Origin: Acetivibrionales bacterium
Lineage (GTDB): Bacteria; Bacillota; Clostridia; Acetivibrionales; DTU013
DNA: 64,000 nucleotides
NCBI GenBank assembly: GCA_050952225.1
Contig: JBMNKL010000001.1
Span: forward strand, 494,589 to 558,588
Direction: 5' to 3'
This document shows, piece by piece, positions 1-12,199 of the stretch; position 1 is the first letter of the stretch; every line of letters starts with the position of its first letter. Below the pieces are notes generated by a model. It did not search any database and had not been told where the DNA came from. It saw nothing but the letters and a program-made list of their open reading frames with translations. The position numbers were made by a program, and so were the translations under genes.

Positions 1-2
1 TA

Positions 3-1535
3 ATGGTGAAGGGGAAGATGTTCAACGAAATACAAGCTTACAAGCAAATAGGATATACAATTAGAAAATGTGCTCGAGTACCGGAATTGACAGAAAAACA
101 GTCCGTAAGTATTGGAATATGAGTGCAGAGGAATATTTAAAATATCTGGCTGCGAGTCGTGAACGGACTAAAATACTTGACCCGTATCGTGAGGAAATTG
201 TTTCAGAGCTTGAAACCTACCGCTAATATCACTTCAGCGATAATTTATGACCATCTGTGTGAGCGGCATGAGGCTTTTGCACCATCATACAGAAGTGTTC
301 GACTTTATGTAATGACCCTGCGTGAAGAGCTTGGTATACCTACAGAGGTAAAAGTCCGCGCAATATACAGAGGTTTCAGACACCCGCCCGGATTTCAGGC
401 TCAGGTGGATATGGGGCAGAAGGTCATGACCGACCCCTTTGGGAGCAAAACAAAAATCTACATATTCGCCATGGTCATGAGTATGTCACGCAAGAAATTC
501 GTGTACTTTCAGGAGCATCCGTTCAGCGCATCAGAATTTGTAGAGGCTCATGATTTGGCATTTAAATATTATGGTGGCCGGACTCAGGAAATTGTCTATG
601 ACCAGGACCGTGTTATGGCGGTTTCAGAGAACGCCGGAGATCTGATTTGACTGAAAACATTTGAAAAACTACAAAAAGTATGCCGGTTTTCAGATCGGCT
701 CTGCCGAGGTTTTGACCCTGAAAGCAAGGGTAAAATCGAAAGTGTTGTTAAATATGTTAAGAACAACTTCTATCCTGCAGGATATATCATGGCATATCTG
801 TATTAAACAGTGAGGGTCTGGCATGGCTTGACCGTACGGCAACGCTAAGGTTCACGAGACAACTAGAATGGTACCAGACAGACTGTTTACGGAAGAAATC
901 AAGCACTTAAAACCAGTACCTACACTGTCGAAGCCTATCGAGCCAAAGTTGGCGATTATTCGCAGACCAATGTGGTGCATTATCGCAGAATCGCTATGAG
1001 GTCCCTAAAGGCACATACTTCCCCGGAAGGCAAGCCAGGATTGAGGCTGACACCCAAAAGGACATGGTTTCTTTTTATGACAAGGAAACCGGGGAATTAC
1101 TGGCGACACACTACCTTGCCCAAGGAGTTGGTAAACTCATTCGACTTTCAAAGAATATGCAGCGTTTCAAGAGACCAAATATGATGAGCTTAAAGATACA
1201 GTATTAAAAAGAATGGACGGGCTAACCTTCGCTGAAGATTACATAGACGCCCTCATAAAAGCGTATCCAGATATGCCCGTGATCAGCTCCGCATAATGAA
1301 TAGCTGCATTGAACAGTACGGGAAGGATGAACTGGAGAATGCCTTAAATTATTGCGTGGAGAGAGATCTGGTAAGCGCAAATGACTTTCGGGACACCTTG
1401 GCATTCTTCAGGGTGGACGAGCCGAAGATTATTCCAAAGCAGTTTACTTTGCCGGAAAAATATCAGATGGTGAAACCTAAAGTTAGAAGCGTTGAAAACT
1501 ATATACAATCCGGGAAGGGAGGCAGAAGCATATGA
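3..1535 (+). pseudogene. istA: IS21-family transposase IstA, split over several frames
   Basis: Pieces in three frames: N-terminal HTH (MFNEIQAYKQIGYTIRKCA), the DDE region (QVDMGQK...IYIFAMVMSMSRKKFVYF, ORF 159-650), a middle part (YEVPKGTYFPGRQARIEADTQKDMVSFYDKETGELLATH) and the C-terminus (ORF 1296-1535). At least 3 frameshifts or stops. Confidence 0.8.
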
Positions 1536-2253
1536 ACTCGGAAATCATATCGCTGGCAAAGCAGTTTCATATTGGCATATTATCGCACGGGAAATTCATG
1601 CCTCAGCAAGGGTTAAGTAATGAAGAATATTTGCTTGAGCTATTCCGCGCGGAAGCAGAGTCAAGACAAAAAGGCCGAGGCTGAACGCATAAAGCAGGCA
1701 CGATTGCCAACATACAAGGGCTTTGATGAATTCGATACAAATTTTCAAAAAGGGATAACCCGAGAGCAGCTTAACACCCCTGGCAAAGCTGGAATGGATT
1801 GACGGAATGTTCAACCTTGTACTTATAGGACCACCGGGAACGGGCAAAACCCACATAGCTTTGGCGATTGGAAACAAAGCGTGCATGAAGGCTACAAGGT
1901 GTTTTTTGCGACCATGGATACTATGATGCACATCCTAAAGACGCAGGAAATATCACTGAAAAGTGCTGCAAGAGTGAGATGGAATAAACAAGTGCGACCT
2001 TGTGATAATCGACGAAGTTGGGTACTTGCCTGTCAGCAAAACGGAAGCCAATTTATTTTTCGGCTTAATATCACAGCTCTACGAATCAGCTTCTGTAGTG
2101 ATTACGTCAAACAAAGGCTTTGAAGGCTGGGCGGAACTTCTTGGCGACGCTATCCTTGCAACAGCTCTGCTAGATAGGCTGACACATAAGTGCCAGGTGC
2201 TGGACTTTGCTGATGAGAGTTGGCGCCTTGCTCATAGGAAACAGATTTTTTAA
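1532..2253 (+). pseudogene. istB: IS21-family helper ATPase IstB, frameshifted
   Basis: Walker A (LIGPPGTGKTHIALAIGNKA) read across 1800-1870 and Walker B (DLVIIDEVGYLP) in ORF 2002-2253. The fragments lie in different frames (1620-1802, 1881-2123, 2002-2253). Confidence 0.8.
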
Positions 2254-2306
2254 TAGAAAAGTGGTGGGAAAATTGTTTGCCAAAAATGGCCCAATTTTGC
2301 TTGACA

Positions 2307-3448
2307 GTAACACTAAGCCTGGAGGCAATATTTTAACGAAGACGAGATCGAATGGAGATATACTATTTTATAATAAAGCAAACAATGAATTTGCTGTAAA
2401 AGCCTCCGATGAAACAATAAGAACTTATTTTAAACCGACTGATGGCGTTGACGGCAACCCGGTATTAACCATAGAGACAGCCGCATGCAATATACGGTAT
2501 GCGGGAGAGTACCTTGACAAAGAAACGGGCCTGTATTACCTCAGGGCGAGGTATTACAACCCGTACATAGGGAGATTCATATCCGAGGACAGCTACTGGG
2601 GCGAGGACGACAACCCCTTGAGCCTGAACCTGTACACATACTGCTTCAATGACCCCATCCGCTTCATCGACCCGACAGGACATGATCCTTATGACGAAAT
2701 TATCGCAAATGCAAGAACACAGAGCCAGATTAACTGGATTGTAAATGAGATTAATAAACAAAAAGAGATCTGGTTTGTGGAAGAACAGGGCGCAGGGAAG
2801 AACCAGGCAGCATGGACAGACGCCCAGACAGAAGCCAACAGGAGGGCGGAAACATTCAGGCAGCAACTGATACAGCTTGAATCAGGCAATGCGGACACAC
2901 AGAGGCTGATTAAGGATGATTCAAGAGGAATCGCCGGGGCATGGGAAGGCTATCAGCTATCTGTCACTGCAAGATTGGCGGAAGCAAATCCCGGTAGGGA
3001 TTACAGCGATATGATAAGACGGCAGGCACAGGATTATGCACTGGCAGAGAAATATGGCAGGAATGTGATAGGCATTGATGCAAGTATGATTACAGAAGAG
3101 ACCAGGACAGCTGTAGAAAGGTTTGCTGAAGATATAGTTGCAATTTACCGAATAAGTATGGCTGTAAATTCATTATTAGCAGAAGGATATGGAGACTTCG
3201 AGAGCGTACTTGTAACTGCGGATAGTGGTAGAATTGTTTTCCCAGGACCGATTTTTGCATACAGAGGAAATGATTTTCTTCTGTTATCTTATACAGATAC
3301 AAAAACGAGTACCGAACAGGTTAAATCAGCAGAAGAACTGTTGATTGATTTGATAAAGTGTATAGAAAGCTATCCGAAGGCTAAAAAGCACATATTGGGG
3401 TTTTTGGGAATCAGATCAAAAGAGCGGGCGAGGACGACAACCCCTTAA
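2307..3448 (+). pseudogene. RHS repeat-associated core plus C-terminal tip 1; the 5' body is removed or displaced by the IS21 element
   Basis: YAGEYLDKETGLYYLRARYYNPYIGRFISEDS...NLYTYCFNDPIRFIDPTGH is the canonical RHS core end (DPxGH/L). About 255 aa follow it. The reading frame runs directly out of the IS end, so no native start is present. Confidence 0.75.
2599..3025 (+). repeat. 427-bp direct repeat, copy 1 (RHS core end plus 125-codon conserved post-core segment)
   Basis: Aligns without gaps to 3426-3852 at a constant offset of 827 nt. Most columns are identical, with one more divergent patch near 2799-2835. Confidence 0.9.
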
Positions 3449-3852
3449 GCCTGAACCTGTACACATACTGCTTCAATGACCCCATCCGCTTCATCGACCC
3501 GACAGGACATGATCCTTATGACAAAATTATCGCAAATGCAAGAACACAGAGTCAGATTAACTGGATTATAAATGAGATTAATAAACAAAAAGAGATCTGG
3601 TTTGTGGAAGAACAGGGCGCAGGGAAGGATCAAACATCATGGACGGGTGCCCAGACGGAAGCGAACAGGAGGGCGGAAACACTCAGGCAGCAACTGATAC
3701 AGCTTGAATCAGGCAATGCGGACACACAGAGGCTGATCAAGGACGATTCAAAGGGAATAGCCGGGGCATGGGAAGGCTATCAGCTATCTGTCACTGCAAG
3801 ATTGGCGGAAGCAAATCCCGGTAGGGATTACAGCGATATGATAAGACGGCAG
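3426..3852 (+). repeat. 427-bp direct repeat, copy 2
   Basis: Same as above. It starts 20 nt before the stop codon of the first cassette and lies in a different reading frame. Confidence 0.9.
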
Positions 3853-5139
3853 TCCATTGGTTATGCGCTTGCTATTGCTTTAGGACGAAATGCTGTTGGT
3901 ATACACGCAAGCGATATTGTGGAGATTAACAAGACAAAAGAAGAGACATTTGTGAGTATAATAAACTGTGATCTGGAAAGATACTTTGCTCCTAAAGTAG
4001 AGCAAAAAGATTTGCTGGCATCAACTAAGCCTAATACAGGGAATCTCAACTTGTTTATTGATGGAATGAGAATAGAAGGGGCAGAAGTAATAAATGGTTC
4101 TGCATATGCAGATATCAAAAAAATAGCTAAGGCATTAAGATATAAGATTTCTGAAGATGATGATCAAATATCATTATATTATTTTGATGAAAATGGAGCT
4201 AAATTCACAATATCATACAAAAAGGAAGGCTGGCTTAAAAGAAATGGAAGTCTAATTGTTAAGGTAAGAGAGCTTGCTGAGTTTAGAGGTTACGGAGATA
4301 CTATAAGTTGGTGGCATGACAAAACGAATAAGCTTAATGTTACTGTTAATCCAAGCATGAAGTATGCACCAATAAAAGTTATAAGACAAGAAAACGTTGT
4401 AGAAATAGCCGCATACATAAATTTTATAGGCGATTCAAAAGAGTTAATGCCTTCAACAGCATTCTCTTACGCAGAAATTGCTGCTGCAGGTATTGAAGTA
4501 GATTGGGCTGGGAACTATTCGGTAGACGGAAAGAGGATTAGCTTAACTACAAAAGTTTATAGCCACAATGCTAGTCAGAATAATATAATACAGAAAGCTG
4601 AATTAGGTTCTTCTACAAAACAAAAGTATATAGACTTCGAAATAAAAGATGAAGTTGGTAGGTCGCGTCAAATGGACGGGAATTTGATTTCTATAGTAGG
4701 GGATTATCTTATAGGAGATAGATATAAGTCTGGTGATCCAATATATGATAACTGGTCAATTGCAAATCCCGGTAAGGTAACACTCTATACAAAGACAAAA
4801 TATAGTAATGTCAAGTATGATCCTAATGATCCTTCGACATATAAAACATATACGCAAAGGGAACTTAGTAATGTTGCTTCTCATGAATTTGGGCACTTAC
4901 TAGGACTTGGTGATGCTTATGGAGAAAAAGGATATCGGTATGCTGCACCAGAATATTATATCTTGCAAGATGGAAGTATTTTGTGGATGCCGTCCGACGA
5001 TAAAATGAGAAGTTCACAAGGAAATGTTAGCGATATAGATATAATGTTCATGCTTAAAGCTTGGGAGATGAATATATTTCAGCCATTCCCAGAGACATCC
5101 AGTTACCAATTTTCGCCGGGTTCTACAAGTACCCAATAA
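3427..5139 (+). CDS. Orphan RHS C-terminal cassette 2 with a metzincin-like zinc-metallopeptidase domain (putative toxin)
   Basis: Frame is open from 3385. It encodes GEDDNPLSLNLYTYCFNDPIRFIDPTGH (a partial core end only), then a payload containing HEFGHLLGLGD at 4882-4914. There is no ATG or RBS upstream; the ORF track start at 3604 is an internal GTG. The region from about 3900 onward is visibly AT-rich. Confidence 0.7.
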   Translation, partial: GEDDNPLSLNLYTYCFNDPIRFIDPTGHDPYDKIIANARTQSQINWIINEINKQKEIWFVEEQGAGKDQTSWTGAQTEANRRAETLRQQLIQLESGNADTQRLIKDDSKGIAGAWEGYQLSVTARLAEANPGRDYSDMIRRQSIGYALAIALGRNAVGIHASDIVEINKTKEETFVSIINCDLERYFAPKVEQKDLLASTKPNTGNLNLFIDGMRIEGAEVINGSAYADIKKIAKALRYKISEDDDQISLYYFDENGAKFTISYKKEGWLKRNGSLIVKVRELAEFRGYGDTISWWHDKTNKLNVTVNPSMKYAPIKVIRQENVVEIAAYINFIGDSKELMPSTAFSYAEIAAAGIEVDWAGNYSVDGKRISLTTKVYSHNASQNNIIQKAELGSSTKQKYIDFEIKDEVGRSRQMDGNLISIVGDYLIGDRYKSGDPIYDNWSIANPGKVTLYTKTKYSNVKYDPNDPSTYKTYTQRELSNVASHEFGHLLGLGDAYGEKGYRYAAPEYYILQDGSILWMPSDDKMRSSQGNVSDIDIMFMLKAWEMNIFQPFPETSSYQFSPGSTSTQ

Positions 5140-5198
5140 TTGTTTATAAAAATATTGAATATATTTGTAAAGTATTTCTTACATGGAGGGATAAATAA

Positions 5199-5708
5199 GT
5201 GAATAAAAGGACCGTAGTATTAATTCTAATTATAATATCTATTTTGGCAGTGGCATTGGCAAATAGTATTGTGGGGGTTTACAATCTAGTATCATATAAG
5301 TACTTAATGCGTGTATTGCCGGTAATCGGGATAATATTTCTGATCCTTGGCGTGATATTATTTGTATTAAAAAAAGTGAAATATATTATGATTATTTCTG
5401 CATTTTTTATTTTGGCATTATATATCTCAGACATTATTAGTGTAATGTTTATTAATAACCAACGTCAAAATATTTTTAACGATGGTACTCTAATTGCCGG
5501 TGCAATTGAAAGATATTATGAAGATAACAATAAGTATCCAAAGGATTTAGATGAGTTAATTCCAAAATATATTGACAGTATCCCTAAGATAAAAACTACA
5601 TACGATGAGGGAGACTTCACATATTACATTACTGAGGGCGGAAAATCCTACTTTTTAGGTTTTGAAAACTATTATTATGATGGAATTGGTTGGATTGAGG
5701 CAGAATAA
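5199..5708 (+). CDS. Small multi-pass membrane protein; candidate cognate immunity protein for cassette 2
   Basis: 169 aa with three hydrophobic helices, then a soluble tail (GAIERYYEDNNKYPKDLDELIPKYIDSIP). GTG start preceded by GGAGGG. It sits immediately downstream of the toxin cassette and shares its low GC. Confidence 0.45.
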   Translation: MNKRTVVLILIIISILAVALANSIVGVYNLVSYKYLMRVLPVIGIIFLILGVILFVLKKVKYIMIISAFFILALYISDIISVMFINNQRQNIFNDGTLIAGAIERYYEDNNKYPKDLDELIPKYIDSIPKIKTTYDEGDFTYYITEGGKSYFLGFENYYYDGIGWIEAE

Positions 5709-5803
5709 TAGTTAAAAAGCTATTTAAAATTATATTGATACGGTGACGATACATAGGGAGGTTCATTGGTGAGAATAAACAAATAGTGGAATGAACTTTG
5801 CTA

Positions 5804-5832
5804 TTGACTTTATGTTCATTCACTGCTACAAT
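5804..5832 (+). promoter_or_regulatory. Sigma-A-type promoter candidate for the tRNA-Met/tRNA-Glu pair
   Basis: TTGACT (5804-5809), 17-nt spacer, TACAAT (5827-5832), about 60 nt upstream of the tRNA. Confidence 0.5.
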
Positions 5833-5895
5833 AGAAAAGCGCGCGGCGGCGTCTTTATAATGCATGAGCGAAACGGGCGCTTTCTCGCGATAGAT

Positions 5896-5972
5896 GGCGG
5901 CGTAGCTCAGGTGGCTAGAGCATGCGGTTCATACCCGCAGTGTCGTTGGTTCAAATCCGACCGCCGCTACCA
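5896..5972 (+). tRNA. tRNA-Met (anticodon CAT), elongator-like, CCA encoded
   Basis: Cloverleaf read by eye: GGCGGCG acceptor stem, TAGCTCAGGTGGCTAGAGC D-arm, TTCATAC anticodon loop, GGTTCAAATCC T-arm, 3' CCA. Confidence 0.9.
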
Positions 5973-5985
5973 TAACGAATTATCT

Positions 5986-6060
5986 GGCCCATTGGTCAAG
6001 CGGTTAAGACACCGCCCTTTCACGGCGGCGACAGGGGTTCGATTCCCCTATGGGTCACCA
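5986..6060 (+). tRNA. tRNA-Glu (anticodon TTC), CCA encoded
   Basis: GGCCCAT acceptor stem, CTTTCAC anticodon loop, GGTTCGATTCC T-arm, CCA. Confidence 0.9.
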
Positions 6061-6116
6061 CATTCTGTGCGGATACCCCTGCTATGTAGGGGTTTCCGGC
6101 AGTATGGCCACTGGAG

Positions 6117-6153
6117 CAGGAGGACGCAAGGCATACTTCGGCCTCCTGTTTCA
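6117..6153 (+). terminator. Hairpin terminator candidate after the tRNA pair
   Basis: CAGGAGG ... CCTCCTG stem followed by TTTCAATAAAA. The U-tract is weak. Confidence 0.4.
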
Positions 6154-6392
6154 ATAAAACAATACGGATAAATGGCTGAATGCTTCATAGTTAATGGAGC
6201 GTTTTTTATTTTCCTATCAGGCCTTTCTATTAAAGATTTTTGTCCTGCAGGAATAATCCTGTCAAGCTGACGGTTTTAACCCTGGGAACAACAGGATAAT
6301 TATTATCGTCAATACAGTTAGTGTTTTCCATTATCAAAATTAATAAGAGCCGGATATCCTGCTGCGATGCCGGGCTTGTTAATTGTGTCTGA

Positions 6393-8961
6393 ATGGAGGG
6401 AACGAGTGTGGGCAGACGTGTAAAGATAACAGTTATTCTTGCCGTTGTGGCGATAATAGCCTTGGCTATTCCCCTTGGAGTATTCTCCCGGGAAACCGTA
6501 CCGGGTATCATGACTGCCGCAGACGAAGGACCGGAAGATCAGAACTGCGGCATAAACAATGACGGGAGCGGCAGAAGCGGCGATACGGACATTATACGCG
6601 AAAGGCTTAATGAAAGCGTCATTTTATACGTTGGAAGCCCGGTCGCGTATGTAAAAGGAGTCGAAACACGTATAGACCCGGGCAATATCGAAGTCACCCC
6701 TGTTATTAGCGATAATGTGGAGATGGTGCCTGTCAGGTTTATTGCGGAAAGCCTGGGAGGCAGCGTCCGGTGGGATCAGGACAGCCTTTCCGCCACTGTC
6801 ATTCTGGACGGCAGGAGCTATAAATTTACGCAGGGCAGCAGCATTATGCTGGCGGGCGGTTCAAGTTATCCCCTCGGCGCAGAGGTATGGGCGTACAAGG
6901 GAAGGACTTTTGTACCGCTGGATAAATTCGTTAAGGCGCTTGGCAAAAAGGTTTTTTACGACAGGGGCCTTATTATTATAAGTGATGATGAAGTTGCTCT
7001 CGACACTGAAAAAGACAAGGAACTTATAAGCGAGTGGATTGCGAAATTGAGTTATCTCCCCGCAGTGGGCTCCCGCGATAAACTGCTGAGCCTGCTGGAA
7101 GAGGGGCAGAAAAGAGGAACTGGTGATTATATAGAGATAATATTGCCCCAGGTGGATACGGGTATATCCGTGGAGAAAGAAATAGCAGCCTGGGAAGCGG
7201 AAGGTTCATCGACGCCGGGCATTGCAAACCAGGCGGCTAAGGTTGCGGAAAGTCCGGCTGCGGATATGGCGGTGGCAGATCCATCCGGTCGGGAGCAGGA
7301 TTATTCCACAACCAATGTCCAGGTTCAAGGCGTTGATGAGGGAGATATAGTAAAGACGGACGGCAATTATATATACCAGGTCAGCAAAAGAAGGGTGGTT
7401 ATCGCAAAAGTCGATAATCCGGACAACATGGAAATTGCCGGTATCCTGGATTACACCGATAAAAACCTGACTCCGCAGGAGCTGTACCTGCACGATGAGA
7501 AGTTGGTTGTCATAGGTTCTTCGAAAGCGTATTTCCCAATATATAAAACGAAAGACGGCGTCCGGACCGAAATATATCCTTCGCCGCGTTATTCGCAAAA
7601 CAGCGTTAAGTTATTGATATATGACATTTCGGACAAGAAAAATGCCAGGCTGGTCCGGGAGGTTGAACTGGAGGGGAAGTTACGTATCGTCAAGAAAGAT
7701 CGGTCCGGCGGTTTATCTTGTAGCCAATGATTATATTAACTATTACCGCATTCAGGACAACGTTCCGGATGATGAGCCGAATATTACGCCATACTACCGG
7801 GATACTGCGGAAAAGGATGAATATAAAAGCATAGGCTACGATTCGATACGCTATTTCCCTGGAGCGATACATGATAATTACATGATTGTTGCCGGAATTG
7901 ATGTTGACGGGAACGAGCCTGCCAATGTTTCCACGTACTTGGGGGCAGGCCAGAATATCTATGCGTCGCCGGAAAACCTGTATGTGGCTGTGACAAGCTA
8001 TTCCCGGATTTATTCCAAAAGGGGCTATGAAGAAAAAACACAAATATATAAATTCGGCATGAAAGATGCGAAACTTACATACTTATGCAAGGGCGAGGTG
8101 CCCGGCATCATACTTAACCAGTTTTCCATGGATGAGTACGGCGGTAGCTTCCGCATGGCGACTACAAAGGGCAGCATATGGGCTGCGGATGAGAGAATTT
8201 CCAAGAACTGCTTATACGTAACGGACAGCATGCTTTCCATTACGGGCAGTATAGAAGACATGGCGCCCGGCGAAAGGATTTACTCTGTCCGCTTCATGGG
8301 CGACAGGGCATATGTAGTGACATTCAAGACGGTAGACCCGCTCTTTGTGATTGACCTGAAAGACCCGAAAAAGCCGGCTATCCTGGGAGCTTTAAAGATA
8401 CCGGGGTACAGCGATTACCTCCATCCTTACGACGAAAACCACATTATAGGCTTCGGGAAGGATACTGTTGAGATAAAAGGCCAGGCTTATTACCAGGGTA
8501 TGAAGGCTGCGCTGTTTGATGTGACCGATGTAAGCAACCCGGTGCAAAAGTTTGCCGAAATAATCGGAGACAGGGGTACGGATTCCGAGCTTCTCAGCAA
8601 CCACAAGGCGCTTCTTTTCTCGAAAGAGAAGAACCTGCTGGCATTCCCCGTGACATTGATGGAAATCAAGGACGCCGGTGAAACGGGAATGAATGCACTT
8701 GAATACGGAGAATTCACGTTCCAGGGCGCCCTGGTGTATAGCCTGGATCTTGAAAACGGGTTCAAGTTAAGGGGCAGGATAACCCACCTTTCCGGCGATG
8801 ATTATTTAAAAGCTGGAAGGTACTGGTACGACAGTGACAAGAATATCAGGAGAATCATCTATATAGGCGATAATTTGTTTACCCTTTCAAATAGCATGAT
8901 CAAGGCAAATGCATTGGAGGATTTGGCAGAGAAGGGCAGCGTTGCGATACCGCAGGCTTGA
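6393..8961 (+). pseudogene. Secreted beta-propeller-domain protein (COG4880-like) with a copper-amine-oxidase-N-like domain; one frameshift near 7675
   Basis: Signal anchor (ILAVVAIIALAI). A VPVRFIAESLGGSVRWDQDSLSATVILDG stalk-type domain. ORFs 6393-7730 and 7621-8961 overlap in adjacent frames, and the sense reading ...VELEG/SYVSSRKIGPAVYLVANDY joins at a GGGGAA run. Confidence 0.7.
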
Positions 8962-9044
8962 TTGTATCGGATATACAATATATACTTAATATGGATAATG
9001 ATTATGCGCCCTGTTCGCGGGCGCGGTGAGATGCGGGGTCGATT

Positions 9045-9912
9045 ATGAGAAAAAGGCCCAGTCGCGGTATGACTGCCATTGCCGTAATATTGATCATACT
9101 TAACCTTTCCCAGGTTGCCCTGATTGCCGCAATATTGCTGTATATAACAGGAATGGGCGATGATCCGGGCCTGCTTGCGAATCCATGGGTAATTGCTTTA
9201 CTGCTGGTTATACTCGCGGTTGTTATCATAAACAGCCTGGCGGCCCTTAGGAGCAGGAGCAGCACGCTGCGCTCAATCTACCGGTTCCGGATGCTTGAAG
9301 ACACTCTTTCAAGGCTGGAAACGCTAAACAACACCTTGCGGGCGCAAAGGCATGATTTTCTGAATCACCTGCAGGTTGTTTACTCTCTCATGGAAATGGA
9401 AGAATACCACGTGGCTGCCGAGTATATTGAAAAAGTATACGAGGATATACAGAAGGTCAGCAGAATCCTGAAGACATCAAATGCCGCCGTAAACGCGCTG
9501 CTCCAGGCAAAGCTGCTGACTTGCGAAGACCGTGGCATCGAGGTCGGGTTAAACGTGACGACCCAATTGAAAAACCTGAAGATACCCTCATGGGAGTTCT
9601 GCAGGGTTTTGGGAAACCTGATTGACAACGCAATTTACGCACTTCGGGATAAAGAAGGCGTTAAATCGGTTAAAATCGATCTTTATGAAGACTTAAAATA
9701 TTATTATTTCAGGATATCTGATAATGGTGTCCCGATTCCTGAAGAGCTTCAATAAAAAGATATTCGAAGCCGGGTTTACCACCAAGGGCGGCGAAGGAGA
9801 AGGGATGGGATTGCCGATAAGCGCCGGGATTATGGAAAAATACGGGGGAAGCATTACTTTATCGTGCGAAGGAGAGTACAAGGTTTTTGAAGGAAAGGTG
9901 CCGCGGTGTTGA
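9045..9912 (+). pseudogene. Small membrane sensor histidine kinase (SpoOB-type helical H-box plus GHKL ATPase), frameshift near 9750
   Basis: Two or three N-terminal TM helices, H-box RAQRHDFLNHLQVV, N-box LGNLIDNAIYA. The G-boxes (GFTTKGGEGEGMGL) lie in the next frame (ORF 9724-9912). Confidence 0.75.
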
Positions 9913-10155
9913 TGGTTTTACAGGCGGATGAGGGAGCCGGGCAGTTAATAAATCCCTGGGATGATGATTTAACAGTCAGTTAAAAAGACATTTCAGCGCT
10001 GCAAGTGTATAATATGCGTTATGTGCATTTAATTTAGGCCTTAGCAATTATATAATATCATTGGATAGATATTGTTCAAGGCAGCATCCTTGAAGCACAA
10101 GGTGATGGATTTAGCCTTAAGCGAAACGGATTTTCCTGAACGGGAGGTGCTATGA

Positions 10156-10659
10156 GTGAATATAGGAGCGTTATTTGTCGGTTATAACTGGATACCGATA
10201 CTTTTCCTGATCGCGGGGATTGTATTTATCGTAATTGAAATGTTGCAACCGGGTTTCGGAGCGCCGGGGATTATCGGAATAGTGTTGCTGTTGCTGGGGA
10301 TTGTCCTGTATGCCAGGAGTTTGCTCGAGGCCCTGATAATGATTATTATATTGCTTGCGATACTGGGGGTGGCGCTTACGCTGATCCTGCAGTCGGCTTC
10401 AAAGGGGCGCCTGGCCAGAAGCCTTGTTTTAAATGATACACTGGACAACAATGTTAGTTATCCGGCGATAGACGACATGAGCTACTTCCTGGGAAGCGAA
10501 GGGGAAACCATTACTGCCCTGAGGCCTTCCGGGGTTGCGGATTTCAGCGGTGTGAAGCTGGATGTCGTCTCGGAAGGGGAATACATTCCTAAAAATACTA
10601 CGGTTATTATCAGCAAGATTGAAGGAACCAAGATCATTGTAAGGCAAAAACCGGAATAA
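10156..10659 (+). CDS. NfeD-family membrane protein
   Basis: Hydrophobic N-terminal half and a C-terminal OB-like tail (ITALRPSGVADFSGVKLDVVSEGEYIPKNTTVIISKIEG). Sits in the classic position upstream of floA. Confidence 0.8.
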   Translation: MNIGALFVGYNWIPILFLIAGIVFIVIEMLQPGFGAPGIIGIVLLLLGIVLYARSLLEALIMIIILLAILGVALTLILQSASKGRLARSLVLNDTLDNNVSYPAIDDMSYFLGSEGETITALRPSGVADFSGVKLDVVSEGEYIPKNTTVIISKIEGTKIIVRQKPE

Positions 10660-10702
10660 GCGCGTATAAAGGTCAAATACCTTATGAAAGGAGACTTTTT
10701 CA

Positions 10703-11698
10703 ATGGAAATTTTAATACCTGTGTTTATTGTAATCCTGGCATTTATTTTCGTTATATTGTTTTTCACATTTATACCGGTGGGGCTATGGATATCGGCTTT
10801 TGCGGCGGGAGTGCGCGTCGGCATTTTCACGCTGGTGGGCATGAGACTAAGGAGGGTCAGCCCCAGCAAGATTATTCTCCCGCTCATAAAAGCGTCAAAA
10901 GCGGGACTGGACGTCAATGTCAACCAACTGGAGGCGCATCATCTCGCCGGGGGCAATGTTGACAAGGTTGTAAATGCGTTAATTGCGGCACATAGGGCAA
11001 ACATGGATTTGCAGTTTGTCAGGGCCGCGGCGATAGACCTGGCGGGAAGGGATGTCCTTGAAGCAGTTAAGATGAGCGTAAATCCAAGGGTGATAGAAAC
11101 ACCTAATATCTCGGCGGTTGCTAAAGACGGGATTGAGCTTTTGGTCAAAGCGAGGGTTACGGTCAGGGCAAACCTGGACAGGTTGATTGGCGGAGCAGGA
11201 GAGGCTACTGTTATTGCCAGGGTCGGGGAAGGCATCGTAACGACCGTGGGGAGTTCGGAATCACACACAGATGTGCTTGAAAACCCTGACATGATATCCC
11301 AGACAGTCCTTAACAAGGGACTTGATTCAGGGACTGCATTTGAAATATTGTCCATAGACATAGCGGATGTGGATGTGGGAAGGAACATCGGCGCTCAACT
11401 TATGACCCTGCAGGCGGAGGCCGACAAAAATATAGCCCAGGCAAAAGCCGAAGAAAGGCGCGCCATGGCAGTGGCGAAAGAGCAGGAAATGAAAGCGCTT
11501 GTGCAGGAGATGCGCGCGAGGGTCGTGGAAGCGGAAGCGGAGGTGCCGAAGGCTATGGCGGCCGCTCTCAGGGAAGGAAAGCTTGGCGTGATGGATTATT
11601 ACGGCATGCAGAATTTGAATGCCGACACCCAGATGCGCAGCACCATATCAAAAATTGGCGGCAAAGCGGATAATGACGAAAATATTATAAAGAAGTAG
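10703..11698 (+). CDS. floA: Flotillin-like protein FloA (YqfA/UPF0365 family, SPFH domain)
   Basis: N-terminal hairpin anchor, then [23 protein letters not shown]..., the [19 protein letters not shown] motif block and an Ala/Glu-rich coiled-coil tail. Confidence 0.85.
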
Positions 11699-12199
11699 AA
11701 TAGAAAGGATATTATCATGCCTAAAGATAGTTTTGGTTATTCCGGGTTTAATCCGGCGCCGTGGCCGATGCCGGTAAGTCCGCCGCAAGGGCAGGGGCAA
11801 AAGCACGGCAGGGGTTGTCGCAGGAGTCAAGGCCGAGGATGGCGGCAAATCCGGCGCCGAGGTCGGGGCCTAATATGACGGCAGGGCAGGCGAAAAGATG
11901 CCAATAGGGACGGCGCCAATGGTGCGGGGTCCATGAAGGCATCGGGGATACCTCCGGGATGACAGCATCCGGGATATCTTCAAGGATCGTCGGTGGGCCG
12001 GATGGCGCCGGGAACGGCAGCGGAACCGGCGCCGGGATATGTCACGGAAGTTGCGCAAAAAAGTACGGCAGGAAGCAAAATGACGGGGCCTGTGCTTGAT
12101 TTCTCCCCAGGCAGCCTGCTTAACGGCATTATATTATCTGAAATACTTGGAAAGCCCAAGTGTTTGCAAAAAACGTTCGGAAAACGATGGTGATGGCTG

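Follow-up and report, generated by a model that had tools for sequence, protein, structure and literature searches.

An orphan RHS cassette with a predicted metzincin-type metallopeptidase tip and a candidate membrane-anchored immunity protein in an Acetivibrionales genome

This report concerns a 64,000-nucleotide stretch of the genome of an Acetivibrionales bacterium (contig JBMNKL010000001.1, positions 494,589 to 558,588 of the forward strand; hereafter the window) and, within it, a cassette of the rhs type at 3426-5139. The cassette opens with an in-frame remnant of an RHS core, continues through a pre-toxin linker and ends in a payload (3853-5139) that carries the extended zinc-peptidase signature HEFGHLLGLGD. 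It is followed directly by a small gene for a predicted membrane protein. The features are collected in Table 1. Before the payload there are only the core remnant and the linker, and before the remnant a truncated further tip; the region 3426-5139 is therefore an orphan cassette, displaced from the C-terminal end of an RHS polymorphic toxin. It probably encodes a metzincin-type protease toxin with a membrane-anchored immunity protein, a toxin that would act outside the cytoplasm of the target cell.

Table 1. Features of the cassette and its surroundings in the window
Feature	Position	Strand	Basis and remarks
First copy of the shared region (end of RHS core and helical pre-toxin linker), within the tip 1 reading frame 2207-3448	2599-3025	+	repeat, TIGR03696, blastn
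Start of the orphan cassette: in-frame RHS core remnant and pre-toxin linker of about 115 amino acids common to other cassettes	3426-3852	+	repeat, alignments
Tip-specific linker	3853-4041	+	modelled as disordered or helical, low confidence; G+C content 0.39
N-module of about 100 amino acids, two beta-beta-alpha-beta units, conserved SWW at its end	4042-4347	+	pLDDT 91-98
Predicted metzincin-type zinc metallopeptidase core (to about 5085), short C-terminal tail and stop codon	4348-5139	+	family profile, PDB profile matches, AlphaFold2, Foldseek
Predicted zinc-binding and catalytic motif HEFGHLLGLGD	4882-4914	+	H, E, H, G, D invariant and F, G, Y at least 90% conserved (n=102)
Predicted Met-turn methionine, Met468	5005-5007	+	column M322 of alignment A4, at least 90% conserved; conserved C-terminal helix after it
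Candidate immunity gene, 169 amino acids, three transmembrane helices and an 85-residue C-terminal domain	5199-5708	+	homologues after the closest toxins; hydropathy

The reading frame of the payload is intact. Translation of 3853-5139 on the plus strand gives 428 codons followed by a stop, and HEFGHLLGLGD is found at 4882-4914 with a Met-containing stretch after it, as an earlier reading of this DNA from its letters alone (the sequence-only reading) had proposed on both points. The frame is open from about position 3385 and its first possible start is the GTG at 3604, which gives an open reading frame (ORF) of 511 amino acids (3604-5139). Numbered from this GTG, the motif residues are H427, E428, H431, G434 and D437, followed by A438 and Y439. 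The methionine of the downstream sequence DDKMRSS is M468, 31 residues past D437, and aligns with a nearly invariant methionine of the family. With rough residue frequencies, the chance expectation for HExxHxxGxxD is estimated at about 0.01 in the six frames of 64 kb; HEFGHLLGLGD is more than a chance match.

What had been described as one domain of about 430 amino acids resolves, according to the profile envelopes and the structure model, into the linker 3853-4041, the N-module of about 100 residues (4042-4347), a catalytic core of 245 residues (4348 to about 5085) and a short tail. The first 30 or so residues of the linker are still common to the relative P0004 in the alignment, and residues 1-63 of the first structure model, which belong to the linker, have a predicted local distance difference test score (pLDDT) below 50. 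The N-module contains the segment INGSAYADIKKIAKALRYKIS, for which a weak resemblance to the Cu_amine_oxidN domain had been suggested. The likeness exists and is visible by eye (xINGxxYxxxxxIAxALGxxV…, …VRELAExxGxxDTISWW), and it turned out to be statistically sub-threshold. The N-module of the window reaches 12.3 bits and E 0.17 with the Pfam model PF07833 (Cu_amine_oxidN1), the gathering threshold of which is 24.2 bits, and the same model matches 7 of 18 N-modules of the family at E≤1 (best E 0.0039). Alignment by hhalign with the Cu_amine_oxidN1 domain of the neighbouring gene 6393-8961 gives a probability of 16% over 24 columns, and the hidden Markov model of the family touches the true Cu_amine_oxidN1 domain of P0106 at E 0.0056. 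A distant resemblance of the N-module to Cu_amine_oxidN1 is weakly indicated by the profiles, and the possible wall-binding role raised in the sequence-only reading is a weak proposal too. The N-module is found in 36 of 139 family members, and at least 25 carry another sequence in its place; being absent or replaced in many members, it is therefore accessory.

A word-indexed homology search with the payload returned four proteins only. The status of near-singleton that this implied was overturned by an exhaustive profile search of 1.84 billion representative sequences, which yielded 199 proteins at the cut-off of E≤1e-3, 72 of them at E≤1e-10. A payload-profile scan of the contigs of 185,579 species genomes found no relative; a metagenome scan added three loci, one with an RHS body, N-module and metzincin domain (L004) and two orphan cassettes (L005 and L006). 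All three retain the pattern (A/S)HEFGHx(L/M)G(L/I/V)xDAY, the downstream methionine and the conserved C-terminal helix. The strict form HExxHxxGxxD is present in 140 of the 153 collected relatives. Four (P0063, P0080, P0112 and P0145) have His in place of Asp, i.e., the classical metzincin form HExxHxxGxxH; the third ligand has thus switched inside one family. The remainder are mostly fragments or truncated copies, and three have other single substitutions in the motif. Poor conservation of the HExxH residues in homologues had been named beforehand as grounds for giving up the assignment; in the alignment of 102 sequences the H, E, H, G and D of the motif are invariant. Conserved at 90% or more are the F and G of the motif, the Y of DAY, two Trp, the Met 31 residues past the Asp, and an Ala and a Gln of the last helix. 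The family has neither a Pfam nor an NCBIfam model to cover it. Its single named instance in the source annotation (Herbivorax sp.) is a "hypothetical protein".

Comparison of the family profile with all PDB sequences gave snapalysin (1c7k/4hx3) as the best match, with E 2.6e-5, followed by myroilysin, matrix metalloproteinases, serralysins and an IgA protease; among the matches listed, 60 of 60 are metzincins. The snapalysin alignment spans the strand before the active-site helix and HETGHVLGLPDHY, and is local, covering about 54 columns. Matches to curated models are weak. In Pfam, the window protein reaches 20.6-22.4 bits with Peptidase_M10 (PF00413; threshold 24) over profile positions 102-125 only, and members of the family show weak M10, M6, M43 and Reprolysin_4 matches. 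In NCBIfam, the members give weak matches to M6 (63 of 102, far under the cut-off), metallo_LGF, snapalysin and metzin_BF0631; the M6 model TIGR03296 gives 21.7-22.9 bits for the window protein, on the motif only, where its cut-off is 110.8. The window protein does not match the snapalysin (M7) models PF02031 and NF033628. Two of the 102 members reach E 3.6e-4 with snapalysin models, and P0028 reaches E 1.5e-3 (snapalysin/Peptidase_M7).

Membership in four known groups was considered and rejected. M7 (PF02031, NF033628) was set aside since the window protein has no match, the matches of other members are weak and the PDB match is local. Immune inhibitor A, M6 (PF05547, TIGR03296), falls far below its curated cut-off. 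The matrixins, M10 (PF00413), fall below the gathering threshold, and the third ligand is Asp, not His. Finally, the Tox-MPTase1-5, HopH1 and M91 Pfam models give no covering match: the Tox-MPTase and HopH1 models have no hit at E≤10 on the window core, Peptidase_M91 appears there at E 0.16 on a stretch without HExxH, and none of these models reaches E≤1e-3 among the 102 members.

A first structure prediction, made with a four-sequence alignment, gave a pLDDT of 39 for the catalytic part and was of no use. AlphaFold2 with the 102-sequence alignment yielded a model with a pLDDT of 91.4 and a predicted template-modelling score (pTM) of 0.90. From residue 103 or so, this model shows a beta hairpin, a helix, a second beta hairpin, strands, an edge strand (245-253), a helix that includes HEFGH (272-286), a loop region with the Met and a helix at 331-343. 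We read the order of the elements in the model as that of a metzincin. In a Foldseek search of the PDB, the catalytic domain of TACE/ADAM17 takes the top four places and five of the first seven; the best of these matches, with E 2e-3, probability 0.96 and template-modelling scores of 0.28/0.38, is a modest one, lowered by the additional module and the insertions. Both lines of the fold check, the profile matches and the confident model, point to metzincins, in agreement with the proposal of a metzincin-type zinc peptidase with Asp as the third ligand and a likeness to snapalysin. From the profiles and the predicted structure we conclude that the payload core is probably a metzincin-clan peptidase. 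Its predicted zinc site is closest to those of the Asp-ligand families, snapalysin (M7) and InhA (M6), and by its sequence the core falls outside every curated family. If the comparison with other metzincins holds, the zinc would be bound by His427, His431 and Asp437, with Glu428 as the catalytic base. Tyr439 matches the Tyr of the snapalysin DxY, Met468 would form the Met-turn beneath the metal site, and the C-terminal helix would close the domain.

In 137 of 139 members of the family, no more than 25 residues separate the end of the domain from the C-terminus (median tail, three residues). Rhs_assc_core is present in 22 of 102 members, and the domain occurs on RHS bodies in P0003, P0004, L004, P0012 (2,389 residues) and P0156 (4,538 residues). 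Other upstream partners are eCIS_core with LysM, a weak WXG100-like head, and arrays of TSP3, lectin and Cu_amine_oxidN1 domains. The C-terminal position together with the varied delivery partners follows the polymorphic-toxin pattern (PMC3482391). Orphan cassettes of the family are found in the rhs arrays of L001, L005, L006 and L092. The proposal that the protease is carried as an RHS tip is upheld by the in-frame core remnant, the relatives on RHS bodies and the terminal position in nearly all members. A releasing or processing role was considered and rejected, because the metzincin is always the last domain, whereas in polymorphic toxins a releasing peptidase is placed on the N-terminal side of the toxin (PMC3482391).

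Two further observations concern individual members. At L092 (1-6588), the tip of a 4,538-residue RHS protein, which also has Peptidase_S8 and RCC1 repeats, belongs to this family, and an orphan copy comes after it; each of the two copies has its own anchored partner of 149 residues, and the partners are 64% identical, a duplicated toxin-immunity pair in one array. In P0017, P0038, P0053, P0062 and P0081, DPxGH is followed by a recurrent helical segment, …W(D/N)…AQI…AT…Y/W…A…GD..GM..AH..A…R, which may be a separate pre-toxin domain and differs from the linker of the window.

The RHS linkage of the window cassette can be followed at its 5' end. At the start of the frame stands …GEDDNPLSLNLYTYCFNDPIRFIDPTGHDPYDK…, which is the end of an RHS-associated core without any RHS repeats before it. 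The core remnant, …DDNPLSLNLYTYCFNDPIRFIDPTGH, contains DPTGH at 3496-3510; the core end …NLYTYCFNDPIRFIDPTGH at 3454-3510 stands in the same frame as the tip, and its last residues conform to DPxG(H/L). Only the last 25 or so residues of an RHS core are present, and there is no full RHS body here. The full-length relatives P0003 and P0004 carry the same core-linker sequence fused to RHS repeats. Upstream, the ORF 2207-3448 is another truncated tip (tip 1), which lies behind an IS21 element and matches Rhs_assc_core (TIGR03696) at E 1.1e-23. The two regions share a direct repeat, 2599-2898 versus 3426-3725, of 95% identity, and the blastn homology reaches about 3025 and 3852, respectively. The G+C content is 0.32-0.39 in the payload and 0.30 in the downstream gene, against 0.49 in the core remnant and 0.46 in the whole window. 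The low values of the cassette (0.30-0.39 versus 0.46-0.49 in the flanks) argue for a foreign origin, as is usual for rhs tips.

A gene 99% identical to that of the window (P0001) lies on a 269-kb JGI metagenome contig, L001, on which a 3,293-residue RHS protein is followed by a string of small genes and orphan tips and then by the cassette. Window positions 1-1446 match L001 3020-4471; from this match, the main rhs gene is expected outside the window, about 1.6 kb before its first position. Tip 1 (window 2452-3425) corresponds to L001 6892-7865 with 99.5% identity. At 3425/3426 the window jumps to L001 9823, and L001 7866-9822, i.e., the rest of tip 1 and a 263-residue gene, is absent. Tip 1 is truncated and has no neighbour gene of its own. 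The L001 copy of the payload gene is interrupted by a 2.4-kb IS21 element (L001 11392-13821) at the site that corresponds to window 4987-4994. The element has TG…CA ends and is flanked by an 8-bp target duplication, ATACCGTC. Since the L001 copy is split, the window holds the uninterrupted version. Of the 20 substitutions between the window and L001, 18 fall in 3426-3852; the tip-specific part differs by a single one, and neither decay nor selection is measurable from the ratio of nonsynonymous to synonymous substitutions (dN/dS).

This history bears on the best-surviving of the rival explanations, namely that the cassette is decaying debris of the rhs array, neither expressed nor used for recombination. 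Such an end would account for the missing RHS body, for the finding of no promoter-like site on the plus strand between 3300 and 3604, for the GTG at 3604 having no good Shine-Dalgarno sequence, and for a locus riddled with IS21 elements and deletions. It would also fit the state of the relatives: the sister-strain copy is split, P0003 is internally deleted and P0004 is truncated. We nevertheless consider it unlikely. The 1.7-kb frame of the cassette has no stop and no frameshift, although the nearby IS21 genes and the gene 6393-8961 are broken; the immunity gene is intact and has a ribosome-binding site; and the repeat able to re-attach the cassette to an RHS core has been retained. The single tip-specific substitution relative to L001 also stands on this side, with the limit on decay and selection given above. 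The cassette is probably a silent reserve that could be activated by recombination through the 95% repeat, while its immunity gene stays expressible.

The gene at 5199-5708 starts at a GTG preceded, at 9 nucleotides, by GGAGG. Its product has hydrophobic helices at about 6-26, 38-57 and 62-84, KKVK standing between the second and the third, and matches no Pfam or NCBIfam family. Homologous ORFs lie directly 3' of the two closest intact toxins, with 43% identity at L002 (E 6e-37) and 39-43% at L004. More generally, a small ORF follows the toxin within about 10-110 nucleotides in 9 of 9 contexts (59 in the window), and all nine of the downstream ORFs examined encode membrane proteins. They fall into three classes: class A, with three transmembrane helices and a C-terminal domain (window, L002 and L004); class B, with one N-terminal anchor after a basic N-terminus and then about 125 residues (L087, L090, L092 and L093, of which L087, L092 and L093 are mutually homologous); and class C, with four transmembrane helices and no large soluble domain (L005 and L089). 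The downstream ORF co-varies with the toxin, with 43% identity beside a toxin of 49% and 64% between the L092 copies. The product of 5199-5708 is probably an immunity protein, which would bind the protease and so block it. In seven of the nine candidates, those of classes A and B, the soluble domain is predicted to face outward. Immunity proteins are normally located where the toxin acts, and the predicted outward position therefore suggests action outside the cytoplasm, most likely on the outer face of the target cell's membrane or in its wall. Neither the membrane nature of the downstream product, which bears on the site of action, nor the orphan state of the cassette had been noticed in the sequence-only reading.

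The same metalloprotease might instead act in the target cytoplasm after translocation, with the membrane protein neutralising it from the cytoplasmic side or blocking its entry. Most characterised RHS tips are indeed cytoplasmic enzymes; the polytopic products at L005 and L089, which have no large soluble domain, could block entry; and the topology of the immunity proteins is a prediction. We regard this alternative as quite improbable in view of the seven candidates with a predicted outward soluble domain and of the secreted nature of the metzincin families nearest by profile. A precedent is also at hand in VgrG2b/Tpe1, an envelope-acting metallopeptidase with envelope-anchored immunity (PMC6899460).

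Finally, a secreted protease with no toxin function, serving nutrition, host interaction or self-processing of the RHS protein next to an unrelated membrane protein or a chaperone or export factor, would suit P0106, which resembles an ordinary secreted multidomain protease (TSP3 repeats, C-type lectin, Cu_amine_oxidN1), P0111, which has an N-terminal hydrophobic segment only, and the general view of the families nearest by profile, e.g., snapalysin, as secreted proteases, and is very unlikely given the extreme C-terminal position after the RHS core cleavage motif, the orphan cassettes in rhs arrays, the tightly linked and co-varying small ORF, and the N-terminal placement of releasing peptidases mentioned above.

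The interpretation that we favour is thus that of an orphan RHS cassette for a metzincin protease toxin with membrane-anchored immunity. An RHS protein bearing the metzincin tip would be exported, and the tip would be released after the DPxGH autocleavage site. On a neighbouring Gram-positive cell, the metzincin would then cut a protein or peptide exposed at the surface of the membrane or in the wall, while the ectodomain of the membrane-anchored partner would shield the producer. In this genome the cassette is detached and would first have to recombine through the conserved 427-bp region before it could act; the immunity gene 5199-5708 could still protect against kin with the same tip.

Several points weigh against this interpretation. 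The nearest copies are all damaged or detached, and the window copy may never be expressed. In other strains the payload is found on the main RHS protein in disabled form: P0003 (ENA) has an RHS body and has lost an internal stretch in frame, which joins …AEVING to LKAWEMN…, and P0004 (L003 236-2179), a 36% identical payload on an RHS body, stops before HExxH. The immunity topology was read from hydropathy and the positive-inside rule alone. No curated family model reaches its cut-off, and the metzincin call draws on the motif, local profile matches and the predicted structure. Catalysis in the payload family is likewise deduced from sequence and predicted structure. The roughly 540 residues after the cleavage site exceed the payloads known to fit RHS/Tc cocoons.

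Little work has been done on the polymorphic toxins of Gram-positive anaerobes, and the RHS tips characterised so far nearly all hit nucleic acids, NAD or translation in the cytoplasm. What the present data offer is an unannotated family of about 200 sequence clusters in which the catalytic motif is clear, the model is confident and the toxin-immunity pair can be tested. If the family is confirmed, the substrate of its protease toxin would point to an exposed weakness of Firmicutes, and its partners would be natural protein inhibitors of metzincins; for annotation, the alignment can seed a new toxin-domain model. A wider view is tentative, and we hold it as a possibility rather than as our expectation: this may be the first recognised metzincin family to serve as interbacterial toxins of Gram-positives, delivered by RHS and other systems, killing from outside the cytoplasm via an essential surface protein or wall component, countered by at least three unrelated classes of membrane-anchored immunity proteins, and with the N-module as a targeting or latency device. 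If true, it would point to a new way in which Firmicutes are vulnerable from outside the cell, and to an inhibitor fold new for metzincins.

The surroundings of the cassette may be described briefly. A scan of species genomes with CarB gave a Eubacterium sp. MAG as its best hit, at 77% identity, which puts the organism in Clostridia and far from any reference genome. Window positions 1-2250 hold an IS21-like element (istA/istB-like) with its reading frames in many pieces. A tRNA-Met gene (CAT, 5896-5972) and a tRNA-Glu gene (TTC, 5986-6060) come directly after the candidate immunity gene, and the rhs array ends beside these tRNA genes; a terminator-like hairpin is seen at 6178-6204. The gene 6393-8961 encodes a secreted protein with Beta_propel and a true Cu_amine_oxidN1 domain (E 2.4e-21), the latter as had been anticipated in the sequence-only reading. 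It is split by a frameshift near 7621-7730, and the L001 copy is split elsewhere. Over 4987-11987 the window and L001 are 95.4% identical with many small insertions and deletions, which may be assembly errors or real decay. The genes that follow P0004 are unrelated (Zn_ribbon_2, TfoX_C and CMD).

Orphan cassette arrays of rhs and cdiA genes keep a core stretch, have a G+C content below that of the core and lie near IS elements. A promoter-less pair of tip and immunity gene stands downstream of the main gene and retains a conserved core stretch for recombination, which is the arrangement seen here; the concept of such cassettes is described in PMC3482391. The present locus differs from a typical array in that the main rhs gene lies outside the window and that both the end of tip 1 and the gene next to it are gone.

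Among known peptidases, snapalysin (MEROPS M7; the small neutral protease of Streptomyces, PDB 1c7k/1kuh/4hx3) shares with the payload the extended zinc site with an Asp ligand, the Tyr two residues on (HETGHVLGLPDHY versus HEFGHLLGLGDAY) and a downstream Met. However, it has about 130 residues as compared with a core of about 245 here, the similarity covers about 54 columns around the active-site helix, and it is secreted as a free enzyme instead of being carried at the tip of a delivery protein and paired with an immunity gene. Immune inhibitor A/thuringilysin (M6) and the IgA protease have the HExxHxxGxxD site in common with the payload; 63 of 102 members weakly match TIGR03296 (best 2.5e-9), six match PF05547, and an IgA protease is among the PDB matches. 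M6 differs in scores far under the cut-offs (22.9 versus 110.8 bits for the window protein), in size, in accessory domains and in biological context.

The Tox-MPTase1-5, HopH1-like and M91 tips of RHS proteins are of the same kind, i.e., C-terminal zinc metallopeptidases in exchangeable cassettes (PMC3482391; PMC13556075), and the earlier remark that a protease payload is unusual for RHS tips was overstated. The description of those families is that of small zincins with a distant relationship to Wss1, and the table of 2012 gives no immunity protein for any Tox-MPTase family or HopH1 (PMC3482391). By contrast, the payload family is predicted to be a metzincin with a Met-turn, and has an optional N-module and a linked membrane protein. 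Among the papers listed by a literature search combining metzincin with polymorphic-toxin terms, none uses the word "metzincin". The kind of system, an RHS protein with a metallopeptidase tip, is known; only this family is undescribed, and it is not a new principle.

The closest functional analogue is the C-terminal domain of VgrG2b/Tpe1-Tpi1 of the type VI secretion system, an HExxH metallopeptidase on a delivery protein. It differs in being Gram-negative and delivered by that system, it is not called a metzincin in PMC6899460, and its likeness to the payload is one of function. VgrG2b/Tpe1 acts in the periplasm, and its immunity proteins reach the envelope by a signal peptide, a lipid anchor or an N-terminal transmembrane helix (PMC6899460), an anchoring that mirrors the mixed anchoring of the candidate immunity proteins described here.

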